A stretch of 64,000 nucleotides of DNA from a plasmid: sequence record NZ_CP118918.1; one strand, written 5' to 3'. Every line of letters begins with the position of its first letter. Position 1 is the stretch's first letter. Shown piece after piece: positions 5,101 through 63,595 of the stretch. The notes under the pieces were generated by a model that saw nothing but the letters and a program-made list of their open reading frames with translations, was not told the DNA's origin and did no database searches. A program made the position numbers and the translations under genes.

Positions 5101-5541
5101 ATGTCGTACCCGCAGCGGACGATGGGGTACATGAACGAGAACAACAGCAACCGGTGTGTGATTCGCATTCTGGGTTTAGTTGACGGGACGCCAACCGATT
5201 TCGACGGCCAGTATGTGGTTGAGTACGACCCGAGCAGGACCGGCACGCAGCCAGTGACAGGTAAACCCATGCCGGTATTCCATCTGGTGACCACCCCCGA
5301 TATCAGTCAAGCGACGCGGTTCACTCCCGACGAGACGGTCGACCTGTACCGCGCCGTAGACCAACGTAACCCGATCCGGGCTGATGGTGAACCGAATCGC
5401 CCTCTCACTGCGTTCAGTGTGGAGACCGACACCCTTGCGGCGGCGCTGCCGCCTGCGGGATGGCACGTCGATCCGCACAATTCGCGCTACTGGCGCTGGT
5501 GGGACGGTACGGCCTGGACCAGCCATATCGCGGCGCGATGA
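5101..5541 (+). CDS. hypothetical protein with C-terminal DUF2510-like motif
   Basis: The C-terminus AGWHVDPHNSRYWRWWDGTAWTSH resembles the actinobacterial DUF2510 signature (W..P.....RYWDG..WT). Confidence 0.5.
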   Translation: MSYPQRTMGYMNENNSNRCVIRILGLVDGTPTDFDGQYVVEYDPSRTGTQPVTGKPMPVFHLVTTPDISQATRFTPDETVDLYRAVDQRNPIRADGEPNRPLTAFSVETDTLAAALPPAGWHVDPHNSRYWRWWDGTAWTSHIAAR

Positions 5542-5598
5542 TTCGGCAGTAGCGCAGCCGGGGACGTTCACGGCGTCGAGCTGCGTGTTCACAGGTTC

Positions 5599-8500
5599 CT
5601 ACCCACCTCGGCTGAATCCCTCGTCACGGTGAGCGGCGTTCCACATGCGGGTGTGGAGATCATGGGCGGTGGTGTTGCGCTGCTGGGCTTTTCGGTGGCG
5701 TTGCAGGGCGGTGGTGATGGCGGGTGTGTGGTGGTCGGGGTGTAGTCCGGCGGCTTGGGTGAGGGCTGCGTTGCTGTCGGGGCTGGCGTCGAAGTGGTTG
5801 ATGCGGCCGGTGGCGGCGGTGAGCACTGGCGACCACCGCAGTTCGGTGTGTAGCAGTTTCAGTAGTGGGGCGGCCGGTGGTGGTGGCCAGGTGGCGGTGT
5901 TGGTGTCGAGCAGGATGATCCGGGCGTGGGCGGTTGCCGCGGTCTCGGTGAGGTCGGCGATCGTTTCGGGGGAAATGTGTTCGGCGCGGTCGATGACGAC
6001 GATGGTGCCCGGTGCGCTGTCGTGCAGGTCCAGGGTGGCGGCGTCGATGACTGTGTTGGCGATCGGGGACAGGTCCGCATTGTCACAGATGGTGGCGGGA
6101 GCAGCCCAGATCAGCGGACGCTGCGCGTCGTGGGCGGCGCGTTCAAGGTGTTTCATCATGGGCAGCAGCGCGGCCCGGTCGGAGGCGTGCGCGGCGGTCA
6201 GCACGAACGGTGCATCGGTAAGCCGTCGTAGGCGGTCGGTGTCGATGTCGGGGTGTTCGCTGATCGGCAGTCGCTCTTGGAAAGCATGTTGACCGGCAGC
6301 GTCGAGCACCCGCAGTTCGGTGTCGATGCGGGGCAGCAGCTCGGTGATGTGTTCGGCGGTGCTGCGCTGTGCACGCGCGAATGCCTGTGCTGCGGCGAGC
6401 TCGGCGCGGTGGAGCTGGTCGCGCAGCGCTGCGCGGTCGGCGCGATGTCGGGCCAGCAGTGTGTCATCGTCGGCGCGGCATCGGCGCAGCAGTGCGTCGG
6501 CGTCGGCGTGGGTGACGATGTGCTCGCTGCCGCCGGCCGCGGCGGCGCGGGCTGCGGTGGCTTCGTCGAATGCGGGATGGAACTGTTCGGCGGGGCTGGT
6601 TGGGGGCAGCTGGTAGCTGGTCAGGAAGTTCAGGTGCTGGGTGGCCGAGGCGATATCGAGGGGGTCGGCGTCTGGGTCGGCGCGCAGGGTGTCGAGTTCG
6701 GTGCGGGCGTGGCCGATGAGTTCGAGGGCTTCGGCGTAGGTGGTTTCGGCGTGATGCCATTGGTCGAGCACGGCTTCGACGCGTGCCAGGAAAGGCCGGT
6801 CGGCGTCGGCCGCGGCGCGCATGCGCCGCAGTTCGTCGGTGGCGGCCAGGACGTGGGGTCCGCCACCGGCGGTCACGTGGGCGGCCAAGGCGCGTACCTG
6901 GGCGTCGGCGGCGGCGTAGCGGTCGCGCAGCGCGTGGACGTCGGCGCGGTGGGCGGCCAGCGCGGCGGCGGGGCTGGGCCGCACGGTGCTCAGGCTGTCG
7001 AAGTCGATCCCTGTATCGGGGGTGAAGTAGTCGTCGGCGTGCTCGGGTGGGGGCAGTTGATCGTCGGGGGCGGTGGGCTCGGTGAGGTCGTAGTCGTCTA
7101 GTCCGAGTGCGGCGGCAAGGTTGTTGGGGTCGGCCAACACGTCGTCGTGAGCGTGCTGGCGCCCCGGTGGTGTGTTCTCGATGTCGGGGTGCAGATGGGC
7201 GAGTTCTTCGTGTTCCTCCGGTGTCAGGGGCGCGGTGTCGGGCAGGGGAATGTCGTGGTCATAGGGGTCGGCGGTGGTGAACACCTCGATCGAGTAGGTG
7301 AGCAGTCGGGCGTACTCGTCGGGCCGTAAATGGTGGGTCAGGTGGGCGTCGGCGTCATAGAGATGTTCGGCGGCCACATGCAGCAGATCGCGCGGTGTCC
7401 ACTGGTCGGGGTCGGCGTTGCCGATCGCGGACACCAGTGCGGGGAAGGCGGGATCGGCGGCGATGGTTTCGGCCAGTTCGGTGCCGAACACGGTGTGCAG
7501 ATCGGGTAGCCAGTCCGGGCGCAGCCCACCGTTGGCGGTCTCCAACACCGCTGGTGTGAGGGTGCCGCACAGTCGCCACCACAATGCGGCGGCGGGCAGT
7601 TCGTCGGGCAGCGGGCGCTCAGCGGCGACGGTGCGTACGAGTTGGGTGATGTTGACTCCGGTGCGCGCGGCCGCGGCCAGGTGGTGGGCCAGCTGCGGCC
7701 AGTAGGGGTCGTGGCGGATGTGCGGGTTGATGGAGTCGATGAGGGTGTCGTAGCGGTTGGTGGTGGCATCAGCGCCGATGAGTTCGGCGGCGCGTTGTTC
7801 GAGTCCGCGTTGGGCGGCGCGGGTGCGGGCGGGGTATTGCTCGGCGCCGGCGATGCGGGTGTCGTTGTCCTCGACGGCGGTTGCGGCGCGATACACGGCC
7901 AGCTCGGCAGCCAGTTCAAGGTCTGTGCCGACCAGCGGTCGTGCCCATCGCGGCGCGGTCGCTGCGCTCCACTGGCGTGCGGTGGCGGTGACCTCGGCGG
8001 CCAGGTCGGTGACCCGCTGTGCGCGGGCGGCCAGGTAGGTGTGCCACTGCGGGTCGGCGGCCAGACGTTCGGGGATGGCGGGCAGCCAGGGCAGTGGGCC
8101 GGCGCCACCGGAGTGTGCACCGGTCGGATCGAGGCGCCAGTCGATGACCGCGGCTGGGTCGGCGGCGTTGTCGAATCCGCCGGAGGCGACCACTTTGTCG
8201 AGCCGTTTGAGGGGGTGGATGCCGGCGGCGGCGATCAACGCGAGGTGCTGGCGTAGCACCGGCCAGGCGGTAGCGGTGGTCAGTCCGGGCACGAGTTTCT
8301 CGGCGTGGGAATCCAGCTCGGCGTGCTGGGCGGGGCTCAGGCGTGATTCGGCGGCGGTGCCGACGGCGTGGGCGTACATCTGGGTGGCGGCGGCCAGGCG
8401 GGCAGCCGGGTCGGTGGCGGCGCGGGCCGCACTGGTGGCCGAGACTTGCGCAGCATCGCGGGCCAGGGCACGGGTCAATACGTCCACGGCGGTGTCGGGG

Positions 8501-53599: not shown

Positions 53600-53836
53600 A
53601 TGTCTACACCTACAACAACGATCCGCGTACCGGTTACCACTCGTGATCGCCTCAATGCACAAGCCCGCGACCGCGGCATCTCCGTCGTCGCACTCCTCGA
53701 CGAATGGTCCCACCGCGCCGAAAGGGACGCCGCCTTCGCCGAGGAACGCGCCGCCACCCGCGCAGAAGCCGCCAACCCAGCCGTCATCGAGGAGGACCGC
53801 GACTGGGAACAGGCCGACGCCGATGGAATCGACTAA
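53600..53836 (+). CDS. RHH antitoxin (MazE/CopG-like)
   Basis: [36 protein letters not shown]. 14-nt overlap with the downstream toxin. Confidence 0.6.
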
Positions 53837-54182
53837 TCCCCGCCGGGGCGAACTGTGGCTGGTCGCCTTCGGCGCCGGCCGCCCCGGCGAACCCGCCAAA
53901 CACCGGCCCGCCGTCATCGTGTCGGCTGACGAACTCCTCACCGGCGATCCAGATCCCACCGAACTCGTCGTGGTGATACCGGTGTCGAGTTCGCGCACAC
54001 CGACAAGCCTCCGGCCACCGATCACCCCCGATGAAGGCGTCGACACCAACAGCGTCGCAGTCTGCCGGGCAGTCCGAGGCATCGCCCGAGGACGACTACT
54101 GCGCCACCTCGGAACGCTCAACAGACCCACGATGAGCCACATCGAGAAGTCCGTGGCCCTCATCCTCGGACTCGACCGATGA
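53823..54182 (+). CDS. MazF/PemK-family toxin endoribonuclease
   Basis: [29 protein letters not shown]...VVIPVSSS...[46 protein letters not shown]. Confidence 0.75.
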
Positions 54183-56597
54183 CCCGGCCGCAAGCCCCGA
54201 TGAGTTCGCGCCGAGCGCAGGTCCAGTCTCGGCGATGCCCCAGTGCCATCCTGGTAACGCTTCAAGCTGATCGCGCCGACGAGGGTGCAGCTTTCGGCGG
54301 CGCGAAGGCCGACGCATCTGGCGCACCCAGTCGCTCACATTAATGCCGTCCGGCGAGTGGTAATCAGCGGGTGGGTCGGCGTGGCCGTGCTCGGCCGCGA
54401 ATGCCGCTAGCGCAGCGAAAGAGTCATCCCACGTTGATGCCTGGCGGAGATCCCACGACCAGCCTGGCACCGCTTCGAGCTGTTTGCGTCGCTGCGGATC
54501 CATTCTGTCCCGGCGCCCGGGACGGCGCAGCGTGACCACCCAACTGTTGAGCTTGAACAACCTGGGATCCCCTGTGTCACGCGGCGGATAGGCGTGCCCG
54601 TGCTCGACCGCGAACGCCGTCAGAGCGGCTAGGTTCTCTTCCCACTGTGCCTCAGCGGGGTTCCACGCCCAGCCGGGCAGCGATTCCAGCCGCGCGCGGC
54701 GCTCATCGGACAACTTCGCTCGTCGGCGACGCTGATCGGAAACCCAGTGCCCCAGAGCAAGTCCGGACTCGGCATAGTAGGCCTGCGGCGGCCGGGCATG
54801 TCCGTGCTGGGCGGCATAGACGGCCAAGTCCCCGAAATTGATGTCCCATTGGTCATCAAGTGCCTTCCACGACCACCCGGGTAGCCCGGCAAGGCGCCTC
54901 GCGCGTGCAGCGGGCAGCTTTCCGTTGTTGTGAAGTCTGCGTTGCATCCCCACCCAATTGCCGACCGCGAAATCGCCAACCCGGTACGCCGCGGGTGGGC
55001 GGGTGTGTCCGTGCTCGGCCCCATACTGGACTAACGCAGCGAAGTTGGCCTCCCACTGCTGATCTGTGAGCGGATCCCACGTCCAACCCGGCAGCGACTC
55101 GAACAGTTCTACGCGGCGCGCTGGCATACGCCCCAATTTGTAGGCGGCGCGCTGATTTTGGACCCATATGCCCAGCGCATCCCCAGCGGGCGTGCGGTAC
55201 TTATAGTCCGGGTACGGGTGGCCATGGGCCTTGATGAAGTCCGTGAGCGCGTTGAATCGCTGGTTCCAAATGGCTTCATGCTGGTTCCATGCCCATCCAG
55301 GCAGGCTCTCGAGAAGTTCGACGCGGTGGGCAAGAAGACGGCCCTGAGAATACCGGGTGCGCTGATGCTGAATCCAGGTGCCGAGATCGGCGCCAGACGG
55401 GGCCAGGTGCCGGCGGGGCACGTTGGAGTGACCGTGTTCGGCGGCGAATGCCCGAGCGGCCTGGTAATGCTGGTCCCACTGCCGAGTCAGCGAGTCGACG
55501 GTGTGAACGCTGAAAGCGCTAAAAAACTGTGCGGCAAGCTTCTTCGGCAATTTCGCGGGGAGGTGGATATCTAGGATATCGGTCTCGATGTCGGTGACAT
55601 CATCGGCGCTAGGACCGTCAGCCAGGCGCTGCCGGACCAGTCCGAGATCGCGGTTCAGTGTCGGATCGTGGCTCTGCAGCGCAGCAAGGACCTGGCGCAC
55701 GCGTTTGAATTCGCTTATGTCGATGACCGTTTCGGCGTCCTGGCTGTCATCGACTGTGACGGCCAGGACGATGAGGGCGGGCCGGTCATGATTGGGGTTC
55801 TTGCGGATAGCTCTGCCGACCGCTTGGGCCACATCAACCTCCGACGATCGCGGCTCGGCGAAGAACACGGCATCCAGAGCCGGGATATTGATGCCCTCGG
55901 TCAAACAGCGGGCGTTGGTGACCATGTTCCACCGCGCAGGGTCGTGAATAGCCAACGTCTGCGTGGCGGCCAGCCGATCACTGAGCTTGGTGGAGCCGTC
56001 GATATGGATGACCTTCGCGGCGCGACCGTCACGGACAAGGCCCCTGGCCGTCAACAGCGCGTGAGTGCGGCGAAAAGTGGCTGCAAACTCTGAACTTGCG
56101 GCAATCGTATTGTGAAACGCCAGCACGCTGGACAACCCGTAATCAGCGGCAGCCTGGGTCAGCGCGATCGAGGAGGCGACATGATCGGCGCGGGCTGCAC
56201 CATCCTCGCCGGCCGCCAAACTGATCATCCGCAGATCCTTGAGCGCTGACGACACCGCGCTATCAGCCACCGCAATGACCGCGACCTTGAACGGTGACAG
56301 AATCCCTTGCTCGATAGCGGCCCGGGTGGGCAAGGTGAAGACCTGCCGTCCGTACAACTCAGGGTCATCCATGGAGGCCACCGAACGCCGTCGCGGCTTG
56401 CCCCCGCGAGTGCGCGGACCACTGTGCACCTTCGGTGTCGCGGTGAAGAACAGCCGATGCGCCGCGGGGATCAGCCTGTCATCAAGCGCGGCGGCGAACG
56501 GCTTGCCCTTGAGCCCCGCAGTCCGGTGCGCCTCGTCGCATTTACTGATCGGACTCACGGAACCGGGCCGCGGATCGTGCGGGAATGCGTCGCGCAC
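54096..56597 (-). pseudogene. SF2 (DEAD/DEAH-like) helicase lacking the N-terminal motif I/II region, followed by about six 'helicase-associated' (HA) domain repeats
   Basis: Starts at motif III FFTATPK, then helicase-C CLTEGINIPALDAVFFAEPRSSEVDVAQAVGRAIRK. Repeated W...L..F...HGH...PP...Y....G..LG.WV..QR.....L...R...LE.LPGW.W units. No Walker A upstream. Confidence 0.7.
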
Positions 56598-56876
56598 ATG
56601 TAAGCCACACGACGCGGGTACGGCGTAACTACCCGATTAGATCGGACCGCTGGCTTGCTAGGGTATTGACCGACATGGTGCCAGTCGAGCCGATCTCCCA
56701 CCGGCTCCGTGACCTGGCCGGCAGCGACTAACGTCTACCTGTGGGTCAACGGAATCCACCCCAAAGTTCGACTGGAGCAGAAAACGCCGTGTTTGCTGGT
56801 GATGACGGGAGCGCGTGCCGACCACCGCAAGGGGCTGGTCGAGCTCGCCTGCGCATCCGAAAAGTTGATCTTCGAT

Positions 56877-57443
56877 ATGACACCAAGTGACTGTCGGAGC
56901 CGGCCGGTACCCTCAACCGCGGCCAGAAAGGGTCCGCATCACGGCAGGAGTTTGGCATTGGGTACACGGACGGTGTTCTATTCGTTCCACTACGACCGTG
57001 ACGTTCACCGCGTCCAGCTGGTGAGGAATATCGGCGCCGTAGACGGAAGCCCCGCTCTCGGATCGCAAGAGTGGGAAACCGTCCGGCGCAACAGCCGGCA
57101 GGCGGTAGTCAGCTGGATCGACAAGCAGATGGCGTACAAGCGAGCTGTGGTCGTCCTTATCGGACAGCAGACTGCGAACCGCCCCTGGGTCAAGTACGAG
57201 ATCGAGAAGGCATGGAACAACAAGAAGCCCCTCGTCGGCGTTCACATCCACGGGCTGTCATCTATGGGGCTCACCGACACCAAGGGGGCTAACCCGTTCG
57301 ACGCAGTCGCTGGCGTCACGAGCGTGCCGGTCTTCGACCCCACCAAGCATGACTATCTAGGCCGGATCGACACCAAGGCCACCTACGCCTACCTCGCTGC
57401 CAACTTGCCTAGCTGGGTGGACCAGGCGAGAGCACGCGCGTAG
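56877..57443 (+). CDS. TIR-like domain protein of the DUF1863/ThsB type (start uncertain; ORF opens at 56709)
   Basis: RTVFYSFHYDRDVHRVQLVRNIGAV...SWIDKQMAYKRAVVVLIGQQTANRPWVKYEIEKAWNNKKPLVGVHIHGL matches the ThsB/MTH538 TIR-like pattern (FxSFhYxxD...V.vLIG..T..r.WV.yEI..A....K.lvgV.i). Confidence 0.65.
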   Translation: MTPSDCRSRPVPSTAARKGPHHGRSLALGTRTVFYSFHYDRDVHRVQLVRNIGAVDGSPALGSQEWETVRRNSRQAVVSWIDKQMAYKRAVVVLIGQQTANRPWVKYEIEKAWNNKKPLVGVHIHGLSSMGLTDTKGANPFDAVAGVTSVPVFDPTKHDYLGRIDTKATYAYLAANLPSWVDQARARA

Positions 57444-58465
57444 TGCCTCCAGCGGAATGCCCGTTCTGCGAGATCGTCGACCGCAGCGATCCTGACGTGC
57501 GCGAGGTATACCGCGACGCGAATGTGGTCGCCTTCTTCCCGACCGACCCCGCAGTACTAGGCCACACACTGGTGATCCCGCGTCGCCACGTTCCGGATAT
57601 CTGGAGCTTGCGCACCGAGGAGGCCGCGCAGCTCTCCGCGGCCGTCCTACGACTCGCTGAAGCGATTCGGGCGGCGGTCGTCCCCGAGGGCTTCAACATC
57701 ATCCAGTCCAACGGAGCGGCCGCTACACAGACGGTTTCCCACCTACACGTCCATCTCGTCCCTAGGAACGATGCGGACGCGATGGGGCCTATCTGGCCGC
57801 AAGAGACGGACTATTCCGAGGACCGCAAGGACGATGTGCTCAACCGGGTCAAATCGGCGGTGTCTTCTCTCAAACCCGTCGAGCCGGAGGTGTCACCGGA
57901 GGACCGACGCAAGCACCTCGACTACATCCAAGCTGTGGTGACTCGACAGTCGGCGGCCTCAGCGTCCGCGAAGGGGTGGCTGCTTCCTGTTGTCACTGCA
58001 CTTTTCGGGTTCGCACTCACCCAGCACGTGTGGCTGCTCGCCCTGCTGGGAATGTTCTTGATTGCCGTGTTCGCCTACATCGACGCGAATTACCTCCGCA
58101 GCGAGAAGGCTTACCGCGCTCTTTACAACGCGGTAAGCCGCTCCGAACGCATGGTTCCGCGATTCACGCTCGACCCAACGGACGCCCACGAGCCGCAATG
58201 CGGCGATGCGCCTGCCGCAGCGAAATGGAAGGTGTTGCGCGACAAGTACCTCCCCCCTCGGGAGGTGTGGACGTCGTGGTCGATCGCCCCTTTTTACAGC
58301 GCAATGCTGTTACTCGGTGTCGGAGTGGCCGTCACCGCAGCGTTCACTGCCGATAAGGCTGCGATACCTTTACCGCACGGACCCACGATGACCACGACCG
58401 TGGTGAGCACAGTGCCGGCGTCCCCCGCACCTGTACCCGCTCAACCGAAGTCGCCGCCGCCGTGA
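57443..58465 (+). CDS. HIT (histidine-triad) domain fused to a C-terminal transmembrane domain (2-3 TM)
   Basis: CPFCEI..., GHTLVIPRRH, HLHVHLVPR (intact HxHxHxx). TM segments GWLLPVVTALFGFALTQHVWLLALLGMFLIAVFAYI and WSIAPFYSAMLLLGVGVAVTAAF. GTG start overlaps the TAG of the TIR gene (TAGTG). Confidence 0.7.
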   Translation: MPPAECPFCEIVDRSDPDVREVYRDANVVAFFPTDPAVLGHTLVIPRRHVPDIWSLRTEEAAQLSAAVLRLAEAIRAAVVPEGFNIIQSNGAAATQTVSHLHVHLVPRNDADAMGPIWPQETDYSEDRKDDVLNRVKSAVSSLKPVEPEVSPEDRRKHLDYIQAVVTRQSAASASAKGWLLPVVTALFGFALTQHVWLLALLGMFLIAVFAYIDANYLRSEKAYRALYNAVSRSERMVPRFTLDPTDAHEPQCGDAPAAAKWKVLRDKYLPPREVWTSWSIAPFYSAMLLLGVGVAVTAAFTADKAAIPLPHGPTMTTTVVSTVPASPAPVPAQPKSPPP

Positions 58466-58692
58466 GAATCGCCGATCTTGCCTTTCGTGGGCAGATACAG
58501 CATCGACGAATTGAAGCCGCGGATTCCCGCTACGTACAGCGAGAACGTCTCCGGTTCACGGACCTTTAGCCGGTCACGTAACGACATTCTCAGTATTCGC
58601 CAAAATTATTGCTGGGCAGTTGGTTACGCCAACTATCGACGAGCGAAGCGTCGTTGATCTGATCGCGGCGAGTTCGCTAGTCGGGCATCGCG

Positions 58693-61299
58693 TCATCCAG
58701 CAGCATCTTCTTCGGCGACGCGCTCCAGGACGTCCTCGATCGTCTCGTGCGGCTGCATGACGGTGTCCCAGAGCCCTATCGGGCGCTCTTCGCGCGCAAC
58801 GTTGGGATTGTCGGCGTATTCGAGGCTGGAGTCCTCGAAGGCTTTGAACTGGTAGATGGCGGCGTTCATGTGAATCGGATTGAACACCCCGATCTGGTTG
58901 AGCAGCTTGAAGTCCTCGACGCTCAGGCCGGTGACCCGCTCGAACAACAGGCCGTCCACGCCGAGGATGATGTCCTTGAGTGCCTGCTCCCGGACCTGGG
59001 TGACGTACATGAACACCGGGATCTTGGCGAGCAGCTTCTGAAGCTTCTCGCGGATCTCCTTGCGGCGCTTGGCGGTCTCGGACTGCTCCCGTTTCTGTTC
59101 ACGGTTGAGCTTGCCGTCGTCGCTTTCCCGTTTGGCCTTCTTAAGCAGCTTCGAGGAGGTGACGACCTGCTCCGCGGTCTGCGCCAGGTTGCGGAAATCC
59201 TCGATCCGGCCGAGGGCCTCCAGCAGATCGGGGTGGTCGAGCAGCTTGGTGAGGGTCTGCTCGTTGATGTTGACCAGCAGGGGCGAGTTCCACCGCTGCG
59301 CGAGCGCGGTCGCGCCGATGCCGGTGGTGGCCCAGTTCAGCACGTCGGCGGCGTCGAGTTCGGTCATCATGCCGCCAGCGAAGGCGAAGATTGGCAGATA
59401 GTTCAGCAGCTGGCCGATAGCTTCCTGCGGTGTCGTATCCCCGAGGGCGCCCAACCGCATGCCGTACTCGCCGACCAGGGTCAGGGCCCGGTTCGGATCG
59501 AACTCGAAGACGTACACCGGGTCCTTGAGCACCTCCACGGTGCCGTCCGGGAGGCGCTTTGACCACGGCGACTGCACCCGGAACGCGGCCTGGAAATAGG
59601 TTTCCGGGGACCTAAGCGAGCGCAGCATGAGGATCGCGCCCCATTCGCGCACCGTCACCCCGGTCATCAGCTTGCCGCAAGTCAGGGTGATCGACCCAGT
59701 GCCGGTCTTGGCAGCACGGTTGATGGCGTCGGTCACAGGGGGCTTGGCCTCCTTCCCCATTCCGACCCCGCTGCCGGCGGCCACCACGACCTCGAAAGTA
59801 GAGAAATACGGGTGCTTCTGCAGGGCGTCGCGCATGGCGAAGCACGCGGCCACGTCGTTGAGATACCAGACCGAATGCGTGATGGCGCGTGCAAACACCG
59901 GCGCCTGGTAGGGGAACGGCGGCTTCTGCCCGCCGACGATCTGCAGCTTCATCTGCTCGGGCAGCGTCCCGCGCAGCATCTCGAGGAACTCGAACACCCG
60001 GTTGGGATCCTCGAACAAATAGGCCCCAGGAGCGGTGGAGGTGGATCTCGGTACGACCTTCTTGGCCCTGAAGTATTCGTTGAGGGAGAAGCCGTCGAAT
60101 TCCCCGTCGGCAGCCCACCTTTCGGCGTCCCCGCCGATGTCGTAGCTGAAGATCTGCATCCCCGGCAGGTCGATGTAGGGATTGGATTCGGCAGCAATGT
60201 CCCAGCGTTCCTTCTCGCGCTGCTCGTCGACGTAGGTCCAGTTGAAGATCTGATCCTCGGTGAACTCACCGTTGGTGATCGCGCGAAACGGGGTTCCCGA
60301 CAGGTACAGGTAGTGGTGGCTAGACAGACCCAGATCGTCCTCAGTGACCGAGTCGTCGGGCTCCTCGGCCTCGGCGATCTCGGCGTCGGTCGGGTCGTAC
60401 AGCTCGCGAGCCGAATCGCGCCAGGCTCCAAAGTGATATTCGTCAAGGACGATGACATCCCAGTCGATGAGGTGGATTACCTCGTTGTGCTGCTTGATGT
60501 TCCCGTCCGCGGTTCTGCCGCGCATGTCCTGGAACGAGGCGAACCAGACCACCGTCTCGGGGGCGTCGGCCGCGCCGTCGCGGTCCTCCGGCGAGGACTC
60601 CCGGTCCACGAATCGCCAGCCCTCGAAATCGACGTGGGTGAGCAGGTCCTCTTTCCACGCGGTCTGGACCACAGGTTTGTAAGTGAGCACCAGGATGCGC
60701 TTCCAACCCATTTCACGGGCGAGTTGGTAGGTGGTGAAGGTCTTACCGAAGCGCATCTTGGCATTCCACAGGAACCGCGGGGCGTGGGCGTCTTCGGCGT
60801 GTGAGCGGAAGTAACCGGCGGTCTGGGCAACGGCCTCCTCCTGCTCGGGCCGCATTCCGAAGTCCGCGGTGCGGGTGCCGTCATAGGGCTTGCCGTTGCG
60901 CACTGCGACGATGGCGGCCTGGACCTCTTCGGGGGTTGCCTCGAACCATTCGGCATCCTTGCGGATCCCTTTAGCGACCAGGGCCCGGTGGACGTCGTGG
61001 TCACGGAAGGCGCTGCCATCGTTGCGCCGGGCCTCTATGTCCAGCAGCAGCGTCACCCCTTCAAGGTGCGGGAAAGCGGTGCCAAGCTGCTGCTTGATGC
61101 GCTGTAGCACTTCGGCTTTCGTTGTATCGCCGACTTTGATCAGACCCGTTCCGCTGGAGTGGGTGCCGCCGACCGTGCGTTCCCACCGCTGGGCATCCTT
61201 ACCGGGCAGCGTGTAGGCGTAGATCCGGCGGGCGACACTGCCCGAGCCGACGGTCTCGACCTCTTCCGGCGGCAGCGTCGTCTCCTCGGCGGCGGTCAC
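58693..61299 (-). CDS. T5orf172/GIY-YIG-like nuclease domain fused to an SF2 (ResIII/DEAD-like) helicase, 868 aa
   Basis: N-terminal RIYAYTLPGK...GTGLIKVGDTTKAEVLQRIKQ...EWFE (T5orf172). Helicase motif I MRFGKTFTTYQ, motif II VIVLDEYHFGA, motif III YLSGTPFR, helicase-C TLTCGKLMTGVTV...QAAFRVQSP. Confidence 0.75.
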   Translation of the reverse strand: MTAAEETTLPPEEVETVGSGSVARRIYAYTLPGKDAQRWERTVGGTHSSGTGLIKVGDTTKAEVLQRIKQQLGTAFPHLEGVTLLLDIEARRNDGSAFRDHDVHRALVAKGIRKDAEWFEATPEEVQAAIVAVRNGKPYDGTRTADFGMRPEQEEAVAQTAGYFRSHAEDAHAPRFLWNAKMRFGKTFTTYQLAREMGWKRILVLTYKPVVQTAWKEDLLTHVDFEGWRFVDRESSPEDRDGAADAPETVVWFASFQDMRGRTADGNIKQHNEVIHLIDWDVIVLDEYHFGAWRDSARELYDPTDAEIAEAEEPDDSVTEDDLGLSSHHYLYLSGTPFRAITNGEFTEDQIFNWTYVDEQREKERWDIAAESNPYIDLPGMQIFSYDIGGDAERWAADGEFDGFSLNEYFRAKKVVPRSTSTAPGAYLFEDPNRVFEFLEMLRGTLPEQMKLQIVGGQKPPFPYQAPVFARAITHSVWYLNDVAACFAMRDALQKHPYFSTFEVVVAAGSGVGMGKEAKPPVTDAINRAAKTGTGSITLTCGKLMTGVTVREWGAILMLRSLRSPETYFQAAFRVQSPWSKRLPDGTVEVLKDPVYVFEFDPNRALTLVGEYGMRLGALGDTTPQEAIGQLLNYLPIFAFAGGMMTELDAADVLNWATTGIGATALAQRWNSPLLVNINEQTLTKLLDHPDLLEALGRIEDFRNLAQTAEQVVTSSKLLKKAKRESDDGKLNREQKREQSETAKRRKEIREKLQKLLAKIPVFMYVTQVREQALKDIILGVDGLLFERVTGLSVEDFKLLNQIGVFNPIHMNAAIYQFKAFEDSSLEYADNPNVAREERPIGLWDTVMQPHETIEDVLERVAEEDAAG

Positions 61300-62906
61300 T
61301 CCTCGTCCTCGGAGGTGCCTTCGTCAGCTATTCGATACTTCACGCCGCCAGGGCGGTGGGAAGCGGGGATCGGGGAGTCCAGGGAGAGAATCGGCTCCCG
61401 CGGGTGGATGGTTCGGTCGATGTAGTCGCGCTCGTCGTCGGTGAGCCCGAAATTGTTGTACAGATCCTCGTCGGTCCACCGCTGCTTCATATCAAGCATC
61501 GGGACGAACTTGAATCTGTCCGGCGTGACGTCCTGGGTAACTTTCCGCTGCAGCACGAGGAAACGCGCGAACTTGCCCGCCAGGTAGTAGGCGAAGTTCG
61601 CCGTCTCGTCGGCGGTGTCGAACATCCCGGCGATCAAGTATGTCTGGGTGCACGCCGACCCGGGAGCGACTGCAATCGGCTCGCCCAGAACGTAGGAGAC
61701 ATCACGGCCGTGGCCGTCGCCCGCTTTGGGGATCAATACTTTCCAGCGGTCGATCCATTGGTGGTTACGCTCAATCTGATCGGGCCTGCTGTATCCGACC
61801 CGGTTGCTGTAGATCAGTGGGATACCGCCGGGGAAAGGCTCGGGAACGCTTCCCGCATAGTTCGAGAACATATTCAACCCGAAAGGCTTTCGGACCGAGC
61901 ACACCTCGGCGACGGTTTTGCTCGTCTTCGCCCGAACCTTGTCGACGATGGACATGGCGCGGTTGTCCCGGACGAGAACACCATCACCTGCACGAAGATC
62001 ACGCACCAGCGTGGAGAGGATCACGCCATCTATCCGCGTGGAGAATTCGCAGTCGCCGTCGTGCTCGCGGTCCCAGAGAAAGTAGGAAACACCGCCTTTG
62101 ATCTCGACGCCGGGAAAGCAGTCAAACAACTTGGGGTTGTCGACCAACTTGGCGAGGTGACGATCGGCAATCATCTTGTCGCGGAACTCATCGAGCCCCT
62201 TGCCGCCGGCGAACCAGCGCGACGGTGTGATCATCAGCAGGTAGCGGGGGTTCATCGAGATGGCCATCTCAACGAATCGGTGGTAAATCGTCGAGGCGGT
62301 TGCGCCGTAGCCTTCGGTGGAAAGTTGGTATGGGGGGTTGGTGACGATGATGTCGAACTTCATGTCCTTCATTTCTTTCGTCGGGTACGCGTCGTGGATG
62401 AACGAATACGCATGGTTCTCGCGAGCTTCGCGCTCAAGGCTTTCCGGCGCACCGCACACGGTGCAGCGGCCTCGGATGAACCTGTGCGGAGCCGCGACGA
62501 AAGGCAAATTCCCGTCCGGGTCGTCGAAACGAACCACCGACAGCTCGCTAGAGGCGTCGCGAGCGCAGTACACGCTGCGCCGCGAAATCATCCCGGTCAT
62601 CTGGGTGATCGACGTACCGAAAAGCATGTCGCGGTAGATGTGCTTGCGACGCTTGTCGAAGTCGGGTTCCCACTCCTCGAGCCCGGCGAGAAGGCGGGAG
62701 GCGATCTCGCGGAGGAACACCCCGGACTTACAGCACGGGTCGAGCCAGCGGTAATTGGGCTCGCTCCACACGTGGGCCGGAAGGATGTCGAGCATCGCAC
62801 GCGCCACCCTGGGTGGGGTGGGAACCTCGTCGTTGGACAGTTGCGCCAGGCAGTCGAGAATGTCTGGCACATGGTTGCCGAATCGCCGGTGCAGGACCTC
62901 TGTCAT
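61296..62906 (-). CDS. Eco57I-family (gamma-class) N6-adenine DNA methyltransferase with C-terminal target-recognition region
   Basis: Motif I VPTPPRVARAMLDIL...WLDPCCKSGVFL. Motif IV FDIIVTNPPYQ. 536 aa. ATGA overlaps with both neighbouring genes. Confidence 0.8.
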   Translation of the reverse strand: MTEVLHRRFGNHVPDILDCLAQLSNDEVPTPPRVARAMLDILPAHVWSEPNYRWLDPCCKSGVFLREIASRLLAGLEEWEPDFDKRRKHIYRDMLFGTSITQMTGMISRRSVYCARDASSELSVVRFDDPDGNLPFVAAPHRFIRGRCTVCGAPESLEREARENHAYSFIHDAYPTKEMKDMKFDIIVTNPPYQLSTEGYGATASTIYHRFVEMAISMNPRYLLMITPSRWFAGGKGLDEFRDKMIADRHLAKLVDNPKLFDCFPGVEIKGGVSYFLWDREHDGDCEFSTRIDGVILSTLVRDLRAGDGVLVRDNRAMSIVDKVRAKTSKTVAEVCSVRKPFGLNMFSNYAGSVPEPFPGGIPLIYSNRVGYSRPDQIERNHQWIDRWKVLIPKAGDGHGRDVSYVLGEPIAVAPGSACTQTYLIAGMFDTADETANFAYYLAGKFARFLVLQRKVTQDVTPDRFKFVPMLDMKQRWTDEDLYNNFGLTDDERDYIDRTIHPREPILSLDSPIPASHRPGGVKYRIADEGTSEDEE

Positions 62907-63595
62907 CGCCTCTTCCCCTTAGCCGCCAACGGCTTCGGATTGGCAGCCAGTTGCGCGTAGTGCACCGGAATCTCGTCACGTTGCGGCTCATCTGGCAGCA
63001 CATCGAACAGATCGAGCTGCGAGTCCAGCGCCGGCTCCTCCAGGGTTGACCACTTCCGCAAGAAGGTGCCGGCCGCGCCCGGCTGGTAGGAGACCAGTTC
63101 GATCACCTGGGCATCGGCGAGGGTGTCGGCGCGCACGATGTTGGTGGTGAGGATTGCGTCGACGGCCGACCAGAATCCGGCGGTTCGGGATGCCGGGTCG
63201 CCAATGTGAGTGGCGATGACGGAGCGCATATGCCGGCGGGAGTCGGTCACGTTTTCGGGGTCGATATCGATGCCATAGATCGAGGCCAGACAGCGAAGGA
63301 TCCGGTGCTCGTACTCCTCGCCGCGATACCGGGCAGGAGCCACCGCTGCCAGTTTGCGGCGCAAGATCTCGACCAGGAAGTTGCCGTGGCCTGCGGCCGG
63401 CTCGAGGAAGGTTTTGTCGAGGTTGTCGGGAGCTTCCTCGCTGGGGAACATGTCCGGTACGAGGTCAAGCATCGCGGTGACCTCACGGTGGTGGGTGTAG
63501 ACCTCGGCGAGATCCCGCACGCGGTTGCGGTTCTTGATCTGCTCCGGGCCGGCTTGAAAAAGCGTAGGGGCAACACCCTCGCTGGTCTCCGTCAC
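62903..63595 (-). CDS. MTase-like protein: SAM-binding motif I intact but motif IV degenerate (TNIVR instead of NPPY)
   Basis: TFLEPAAGHGNFLVEIL and IYGIDIDPENV (motifs I-III). FDAILTTNIVRADTL sits where FD.I.TNPPY is expected. 230 aa. First gene of the three-gene operon. Confidence 0.5.
   Translation of the reverse strand: MTETSEGVAPTLFQAGPEQIKNRNRVRDLAEVYTHHREVTAMLDLVPDMFPSEEAPDNLDKTFLEPAAGHGNFLVEILRRKLAAVAPARYRGEEYEHRILRCLASIYGIDIDPENVTDSRRHMRSVIATHIGDPASRTAGFWSAVDAILTTNIVRADTLADAQVIELVSYQPGAAGTFLRKWSTLEEPALDSQLDLFDVLPDEPQRDEIPVHYAQLAANPKPLAAKGKRR

Follow-up and report, generated by a model that had tools for sequence, protein, structure and literature searches.

Does the overlapping gene pair at positions 56,877–58,465 of the plasmid sequence treated here, a TIR gene followed directly by a gene for a HIT-domain protein with transmembrane (TM) segments, represent a new kind of Thoeris-like defence module, and what role could each of its parts play? 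We analysed this pair, named thsB and thsL, within a stretch of 64,000 nucleotides (nt) from record NZ_CP118918.1, referred to below as the window. Judged by sequence comparison, the pair can be assigned with good confidence as a type XI Thoeris anti-phage defence module; this confidence concerns the identity of the module and not the mechanistic sub-steps, which are graded separately. Type XI was defined by Yirmiya et al. (bioRxiv 10.64898/2025.12.03.692087, 3 Dec 2025), whose systematic survey of TIR operons set out Thoeris types V–XI; type XI comprises a TIR protein and the effector ThsL, labelled 'HIT hydrolase / hydrolase effector'. The initial annotation had proposed a Thoeris-like pair with a HIT-TM protein in the effector position and had presented it as a candidate new module. 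Its functional half holds, given the conserved pairs and a protective homologue described below; the claim of novelty does not, since the type XI preprint and the PADLOC models PDC-M50A, PDC-M50B and 'ThsC' already existed. The locus is a new mycobacterial member of type XI and not a new system, and because that type had already been described, the catalogue of defence systems is unchanged.

The thsB–thsL gene pair

The open reading frame (ORF) listing and the sequence itself place both genes on the same strand, with the TIR gene first. The pair has the following parts (aa, amino acids):

56958–57443, plus strand: thsB, ThsB-type TIR gene; 161 aa from the probable TTG start at 56958, stop codon TAG at 57441–57443
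57198–57200, plus strand: codon of TIR Glu81, the predicted catalytic Glu (161-aa numbering; E108 in the 188-aa version)
57441–57445, plus strand: TAGTG junction, in which the thsB stop and the thsL GTG start (57443–57445) share one base
57443–58465, plus strand: thsL, effector gene encoding a HIT domain fused to a three-TM module; 340 aa
57443–57868, plus strand: HIT domain, aa 1–142, with CxxC residues C6/C9 and His triad H100/H102/H104 (codons 57740–57754)
57878–57976, plus strand: juxtamembrane amphipathic helix, aa 146–178, with the conserved motif EDRRKHLDYIQAVVTRQSAASxSAKGW
57977–58081, plus strand: TM hairpin TM1–TM2, aa 179–213, from Kyte–Doolittle hydropathy
58082–58276, plus strand: predicted cytoplasmic loop, aa 214–278, with conserved DANYLRxExxxRxLY after TM2
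58277–58345, plus strand: third TM helix, aa 279–301, from hydropathy, with conserved WSWSIAPFY ahead of it
58346–58462, plus strand: Pro/Thr-rich C-terminal tail of low model confidence, aa 302–340, predicted to be extracytoplasmic

The ThsB-type TIR signature previously reported for the ORF ending at 57443 is borne out, with the quoted motifs present in the translation. The product matches PF08937 (ThsB_TIR; E 2e-24, 86 bits against a cutoff of 21) in a Pfam scan, and the PADLOC profiles ThsB1 (E 1.7e-51) and PDC-M50B (E 3.8e-44). Glu81 aligns with the Glu of 'RYEI' in Bacillus cereus ThsB (6lhy/9b7d), the catalytic E85, and is conserved in 100% of 107 unique TIRs of the thsB clade. The solved structure nearest to this TIR is PDB 8wcf_A (E 1e-34), a 160-aa chain named 'Molecular chaperone Tir' that is far nearer to it than B. 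cereus ThsB (E 6e-14); a literature search for entry 8WCF found no paper mentioning it. Translation of thsB probably starts at TTG 56958, because the N-termini of homologous TIR proteins (161–162 aa, beginning M-A/G-T-R-T-VFYSF) align there and gene callers assign 161 aa to the homologues. This TTG is preceded by AGGAG (56946–56950) at a spacing of 7 nt. In-frame starts further upstream, ATG 56877 (188 aa) and GTG 56709 (244 aa), would add no conserved sequence.

The TAGTG overlap can be read directly in the sequence, and the description of the 340-aa product as an intact HIT domain followed by a hydrophobic hairpin and a third TM segment agrees with Pfam, hydropathy and AlphaFold2. Residues 22–109 match PF01230 (HIT; E 3e-21), and the motifs CPFC, GHTLVIPRRH and HLHVHLVPR are all present. 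Profile matches in the PDB include 1y23 and 3imi (E about 1e-32), and a Foldseek search of the PDB with the N-terminal domain returned HIT proteins only (3lb5, Mycobacterium smegmatis 3o0m, 1y23, FHIT and the Ap4A phosphorylase Rv2613c). Across 100 unique HIT sequences, both fused and separate, the CxxC, QSNG and HxHxH motifs are at least 97% conserved. By sequence and model, the domain looks like an ordinary Hint/Hit-branch protein without an added regulatory insert.

The C-terminal module is best conserved in the juxtamembrane helix at aa 146–178, where its match to the PADLOC profile PDC-M50A also begins (aa 153–248, E 1.2e-21). An AlphaFold2 model built from 64 homologues (mean predicted local distance difference test score, pLDDT, 84) shows the HIT fold at 1–142, two very long helices at 152–194 and 197–232, a partly ordered loop and a final helix at 282–306; in the models the juxtamembrane region is helical and runs straight into TM1. 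The topology of the loop follows from a cytoplasmic HIT domain plus three TM segments. A scan of 18 diverse TM modules against Pfam, relaxed to E ≤ 10, gave noise only, with no DUF2270, SLATT or Macro match. A profile search with the module gave 2614 matches; among the matches listed, standalone TM proteins of about 160 aa dominate, and none carries a Pfam annotation except HIT in the fused proteins. The tail (pLDDT about 60) has similar counterparts, in an alignment of 18 sequences, in Corynebacteriales (Mycobacteroides, Gordonia, Williamsia, M. avium) and one other protein; the majority of the remaining homologues end at about aa 300. Possibly, this tail relates to the mycolate cell envelope. 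Scanning 56500–58750 for promoters and terminators gave nothing useful.

Type XI membership and the modular effector across genomes

The assignment to type XI rests on both proteins. The thsB TIR shares 66% identity with both type XI TIR domains listed in Table S1 of the preprint (E 4e-73 and 2e-77), which belong to cluster 2661146773. When the 340-aa ThsL sequence was used as query, 224 relatives were retrieved, nearly all of about 300–370 aa with the same two-part layout, and the named sources among them are Actinomycetota. One relative, a Sinomonas atrocyanea HIT protein (P0064, locus L001), is 69% identical to ThsL here, and the gene immediately upstream of it encodes exactly the Sinomonas TIR of Table S1, which identifies P0064 as the ThsL that the preprint tested. 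When metagenomes were scanned with the verified type XI TIR domain, three contigs (L078–L080) proved to carry a 100% identical TIR, and in each the downstream ORF encodes a fused HIT-TM protein, 47% identical to ThsL over aa 6–297 and thus across both domains (E 3e-83). The order TIR then effector also holds in L001, L003 and most other loci examined. All features of type XI that can be checked in sequence are present at thsB–thsL, namely the TIR clade, the HIT effector, the operon order and the catalytic residues, and on these grounds the locus very probably belongs to type XI.

According to Table S2 of the preprint, two type XI systems were tested, and the one taken from a metagenomic scaffold of Actinobacteria protected E. 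coli against phage; the type XI signal is given in the preprint as not being 3'cADPR, cADPR or His-ADPR. One point counts against reading thsB–thsL as a working defence module. The second system tested, that of S. atrocyanea KCTC 3377, gave no protection in E. coli (Table S2), so that the nearest tested homologue, 66–69% identical to the proteins here, was negative and the protective system is the more distant one.

Two sets of loci show how the pair is conserved. Scanning one genome per species in 185,579 species with an alignment of the effector gave 70 loci, which together with three fetched homologue loci and the thsB–thsL locus make up an effector-anchored set of 74. The second set, anchored on the TIR and chosen from metagenomes without regard to the effector, holds 57 loci with at least 1100 nt of downstream sequence. 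Almost all of the 70 scan loci are from Actinomycetota, with a few metagenome-assembled genomes (MAGs) of Chloroflexota, Planctomycetota, Desulfobacteraceae and Acetobacteraceae. The neighbourhood survey suggested in the initial annotation came out in favour of a linked pair: a close TIR adjoins the effector in 54 of the 70; in 53 of them it lies directly upstream, and in the other (L073) it immediately follows a TM-only gene. Among the other scan loci, several have a TIR_2-like gene of greater divergence instead, and one is truncated at a contig edge. In loci other than thsB–thsL, the HIT alignment begins −7 to +18 nt from the TIR stop.

The same loci reveal that the ThsL effector is two modules, HIT and TM, which are encoded by separate adjacent genes or, as here, are fused. 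Within the effector-anchored set, HIT-TM fusions account for 20 of 74 loci (including Sinomonas, Gordonia, Rhodococcus, Arthrobacter and Cutibacterium), separate adjacent genes for 49, four of which have the TM gene on the opposite strand, and the TM module alone for five. The TIR-anchored set contains both modules in 46 of 57 loci (22 fused, 24 split), a TIR with TM only in five and neither HIT nor TM in six; a TIR with HIT alone was found in none of these 57. The TM module is thus the constant partner of the thsB TIR clade, and the HIT module is sometimes absent. TM-only partners of these TIRs match PDC-M50A with E values down to 3e-30. We considered whether the split loci could be frameshift artefacts and rejected this reading, because such loci are numerous in both sets and many standalone TM proteins of about 160 aa also appear in the output of independent gene callers.

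Other arrangements were seen in individual loci. In Humibacillus and Agromyces soli (L060 6438–8902, minus strand; L061 6419–7512, minus strand), a separate TM gene converges on the TIR–HIT genes from the opposite strand, with TIR or SLOG-like genes of its own, different from those of the pair, ahead of it. Similar SLOG-like and TIR-like genes in Mycolicibacterium brisbanense (L058 2214–4033, minus strand) converge on a HIT–TM pair whose two genes share a strand. These three loci look like two TIR modules that share or exchange parts. A Desulfobacteraceae MAG (L071 2798–3893, plus strand) carries a SLOG-like protein, rather than a TIR or HIT protein, ahead of a distant TM-module homologue, and the TM module may therefore serve other nucleotide-signalling systems too. 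Finally, three Micromonospora loci (L032, L050 and L062, about 5150–5830, plus strand) have split HIT and TM genes but no TIR of the usual kind; all that lies upstream is a short ORF whose N-terminus bears a TIR_2-like motif, 'PIFISHAG...', and which may be a TIR that has decayed or diverged.

Genomic surroundings and mobility

Three groups of features flank the pair in the window:

53823–54179, plus strand: PemK/MazF toxin ORF
54096–56597, minus strand: 'helicase' ORF of 833 aa with six HA repeats and Helicase_C; N-terminal helicase motifs missing
58693–63595, minus strand: three consecutive restriction–modification (R-M)-like genes, encoding an 868-aa protein with T5orf172 and ResIII, a 536-aa Eco57I-type methylase and a 230-aa methylase-like fragment

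The defence-island setting described in the initial annotation is confirmed by the PemK toxin and the type IIG-like R-M fragments on both sides; a DUF772 transposase fragment is present upstream. About 84 nt are shared between the PemK/MazF ORF and the 3' end of the helicase-fragment ORF, which is convergent with it; a 78-aa ORF without a Pfam match, called immediately upstream in L074, is taken to be the antitoxin. The helicase ORF looks truncated, because its N-terminal motifs are missing and it aligns only to residues 328–643 of a type IIG R-M profile of 1646 positions. ORFs of 785–850 aa with Helicase_C abut thsB in four different contexts (L074–L077), so that this fragment seems to travel with the Thoeris genes. 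On the other side, the 868-, 536- and 230-aa genes together cover different parts of single type IIG restriction–methylase profiles, and represent a type IIG-like R-M system that is either split or decayed. The 64-kb window contains no further copy of the TIR, HIT or TM module. SIR2, SLOG and Macro domains are absent from the thsB-adjacent effector, and the flanks consist of the R-M fragments and PemK; the whole window was not scanned for SIR2 or Macro.

The ThsL sequence is identical to WP_082164298.1, 'MULTISPECIES: HIT family protein [Mycobacteriaceae]', which is recorded in Mycolicibacterium obuense with the annotation AP-4-A phosphorylase. Members of the 90%-identity clusters of ThsL and of the TIR are found in M. 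austroafricanum, Mycobacteroides chelonae and an M. vanbaalenii plasmid, the last of which carries an annotated TIR from the cluster of the thsB product. A block of five genes, encoding the HA-repeat helicase fragment, ThsB, ThsL, the 868-aa ResIII/T5orf172 protein and the Eco57I-type methylase, recurs in varied surroundings. In most of the other surroundings (L074–L076) it is followed by at least two tyrosine recombinases and a DUF6262 gene, and in L077 (GCA_052695285.1, CM127516.1; 14949–18859) it adjoins a cyclic oligonucleotide-based antiphage signalling system (CBASS) operon (SMODS, bacHORMA, AAA, SAVED) and an MmeI-type enzyme. The block is a mobile cassette that moves between defence islands, and the pair is probably best described as a type XI Thoeris system of two genes, carried by a mobile defence island in a Mycolicibacterium-like genome.

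Proposed roles of the HIT and TM modules, and related systems

We propose a mechanism in which the ThsB TIR, with Glu81 as its catalytic residue, would sense infection and turn NAD+ into an ADP-ribose-derived signal. The three-TM module of ThsL, a PDC-M50A-family module with no Pfam model, would be the actual receptor and killing part: the signal would bind the juxtamembrane helices on either side of the hairpin, which are conserved and positively charged (RKHLDxIQ...R...K and DANYLRxE...R), and binding would lead to TM oligomerisation and loss of membrane integrity, resulting in abortive infection or growth arrest. A ligand site in these charged helices is likely by analogy with the type V and VII effectors, for which the preprint presents modelled ligand pockets. 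The HIT domain is predicted to be a catalytically active nucleotide enzyme, with H102 as its nucleophile, that handles an AMP-containing signal at the effector. Its most likely role would be to bind and cleave the signal as a built-in threshold or off-switch; alternatively, it could convert the TIR product into the active ligand, as a maturation step.

These parts differ in strength. That the TM module is the membrane-acting effector is somewhat probable; that it also perceives the signal is suggested because it is the invariant partner of the TIR clade, is the most conserved part and can pair with a TIR in operons lacking HIT. For the HIT domain, a role as a signal-processing enzyme has slightly less than an even chance, and is favoured because the active site is intact, because the domain also occurs as a separate protein and because HIT proteins accompany ThsA/ThsB systems that bear SLOG. 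Taken together, we tentatively put forward type XI as a three-part system, in which the TM module would be a self-sufficient receptor-effector and HIT a dedicated signal-metabolising enzyme, acting as an off-switch or in maturation via an AMP-His intermediate. Two points tell against this mechanism: the HIT for the operons with TIR and TM only could be encoded elsewhere, and the HIT-TM fusion and its parallel with the Macro-TM effector of type II suit a HIT domain that senses the signal equally well.

Such a sensing HIT domain, the main reading of the initial annotation, which offered processing of the TIR product by HIT as the other option, would occupy the position of SLOG or Macro, bind the TIR product and allosterically open or oligomerise the TM module, with any catalysis incidental. 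Adenine nucleotides are bound by HIT domains, and the fusions in 20 of 74 effector-anchored and 22 of 57 TIR-anchored loci imply that HIT and TM act as one unit; the layout, an N-terminal nucleotide-binding domain followed by TM helices, is that of the type II effector as described in the preprint. The near-complete conservation of the His triad and the entire active-site motif nonetheless points to selection on chemistry and not on binding alone. TIRs of the same clade also pair with the TM module alone (five of 57 loci, and PDC-M50), so that this module seems able to respond without HIT, and HIT is found as an additional, third gene next to ThsA/ThsB systems that are complete and already sense through SLOG. 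We therefore regard sensing by HIT as rather unlikely, the comparative data leaning towards a processor. Less probable still is a HIT domain that is itself the toxic part, degrading an essential nucleotide pool (e.g., ATP, NAD-related dinucleotides or capped/adenylylated intermediates), with the TM module as anchor or regulator. The preprint label of ThsL as a hydrolase effector and the conserved catalytic triad would fit, and nucleotide-depleting effectors are common in defence, as in the discussion of type VIII there (Yirmiya et al.). Opposed to this are the greater conservation of the TM module, which is the partner never missing, the existence of HIT-less TIR–TM operons and the absence of a TIR–HIT-only operon wherever the contig was long enough (57 loci), as well as the ordinary Hint/Hit-branch build of the domain, with no extra regulatory insert.

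A reading outside defence, in which a housekeeping, membrane-anchored HIT protein lies by chance beside a TIR-like gene, draws on generic database names such as 'HIT family protein', 'AP-4-A phosphorylase' and 'ATP adenylyltransferase'. It is highly improbable, and we rejected it on distribution, mobility and context. The family is sporadic (70 loci in 185,579 species representatives) and both strain-variable and mobile, with an identical effector in several Mycobacteriaceae, a TIR cluster-mate annotated on a plasmid and differing flanks in L074–L077. It is also linked to TIR in 54 of 70 loci and set among R-M, toxin–antitoxin and CBASS genes, and a homologous pair has a phage-defence phenotype (Yirmiya et al.).

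If the three-part reading holds, HIT would be the first enzyme of its family to take part in the turnover of immune second messengers, and the label 'HIT hydrolase effector' would be a misnomer. The series of fused, split and HIT-less loci turns the 'hydrolase effector' from a black box into concrete, testable module roles. The locus itself is a native mycobacterial example of type XI, in a group with active phage therapy and phage genetics.

Among known systems, PADLOC PDC-M50 shares both main components with the pair: the TIR matches PDC-M50B and the TM module matches PDC-M50A. It differs in having no HIT, judging by its protein names, whereas the M50A-like module here is fused to an N-terminal HIT domain. 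PDC-M50 is a candidate system, for which a literature search found no published test. A second relative is the PADLOC system 'Thoeris type II' (ThsA + ThsB + ThsC; PMC8565338), in which a HIT-family protein is likewise tied genetically to ThsB TIR signalling. Payne et al. (2021; PMC8565338) reported that 2.4% of Thoeris loci contain an additional gene, for the HIT protein ThsC, and proposed that this protein makes or degrades the signal. The thsL HIT domain matches PADLOC ThsC2 (E 2.7e-18, 64 bits) no better than it matches the generic Pfam HIT model (76 bits), and in that system HIT is a third gene beside a SIR2-SLOG ThsA, whereas here it is joined to a membrane module and no ThsA was found among the genes adjacent to thsB–thsL. 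A literature search combining HIT domain, TIR domain and phage found nothing.

The membrane-effector Thoeris types II (Macro-TM), V (DUF2270, three TM) and VII (SLATT) resemble the pair in that a small multi-TM protein is presumed to damage the membrane once activated by a TIR signal, and types V and VII also have conserved charged juxtamembrane regions as possible ligand pockets. The TM module of ThsL differs from all three in having no sequence relationship to them: none of the 18 members scanned matched DUF2270 (PF10028), PF18181-type SLATT or Macro at E ≤ 10. With type XI itself, the pair shares the TIR clade, an orthologous effector, the gene order, the gene overlap and the fused HIT-TM architecture; it differs in coming from Mycobacteriaceae and in the extra Pro/Thr-rich C-terminal tail of its effector. 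The type XI text of the preprint, in its available part, calls the effector only a hydrolase and says nothing of its membrane module or of the split form with three genes. To a kind of system already known, the comparison made here adds separable HIT and TM modules, the TM module as the constant partner and conserved chemistry in the HIT domain.

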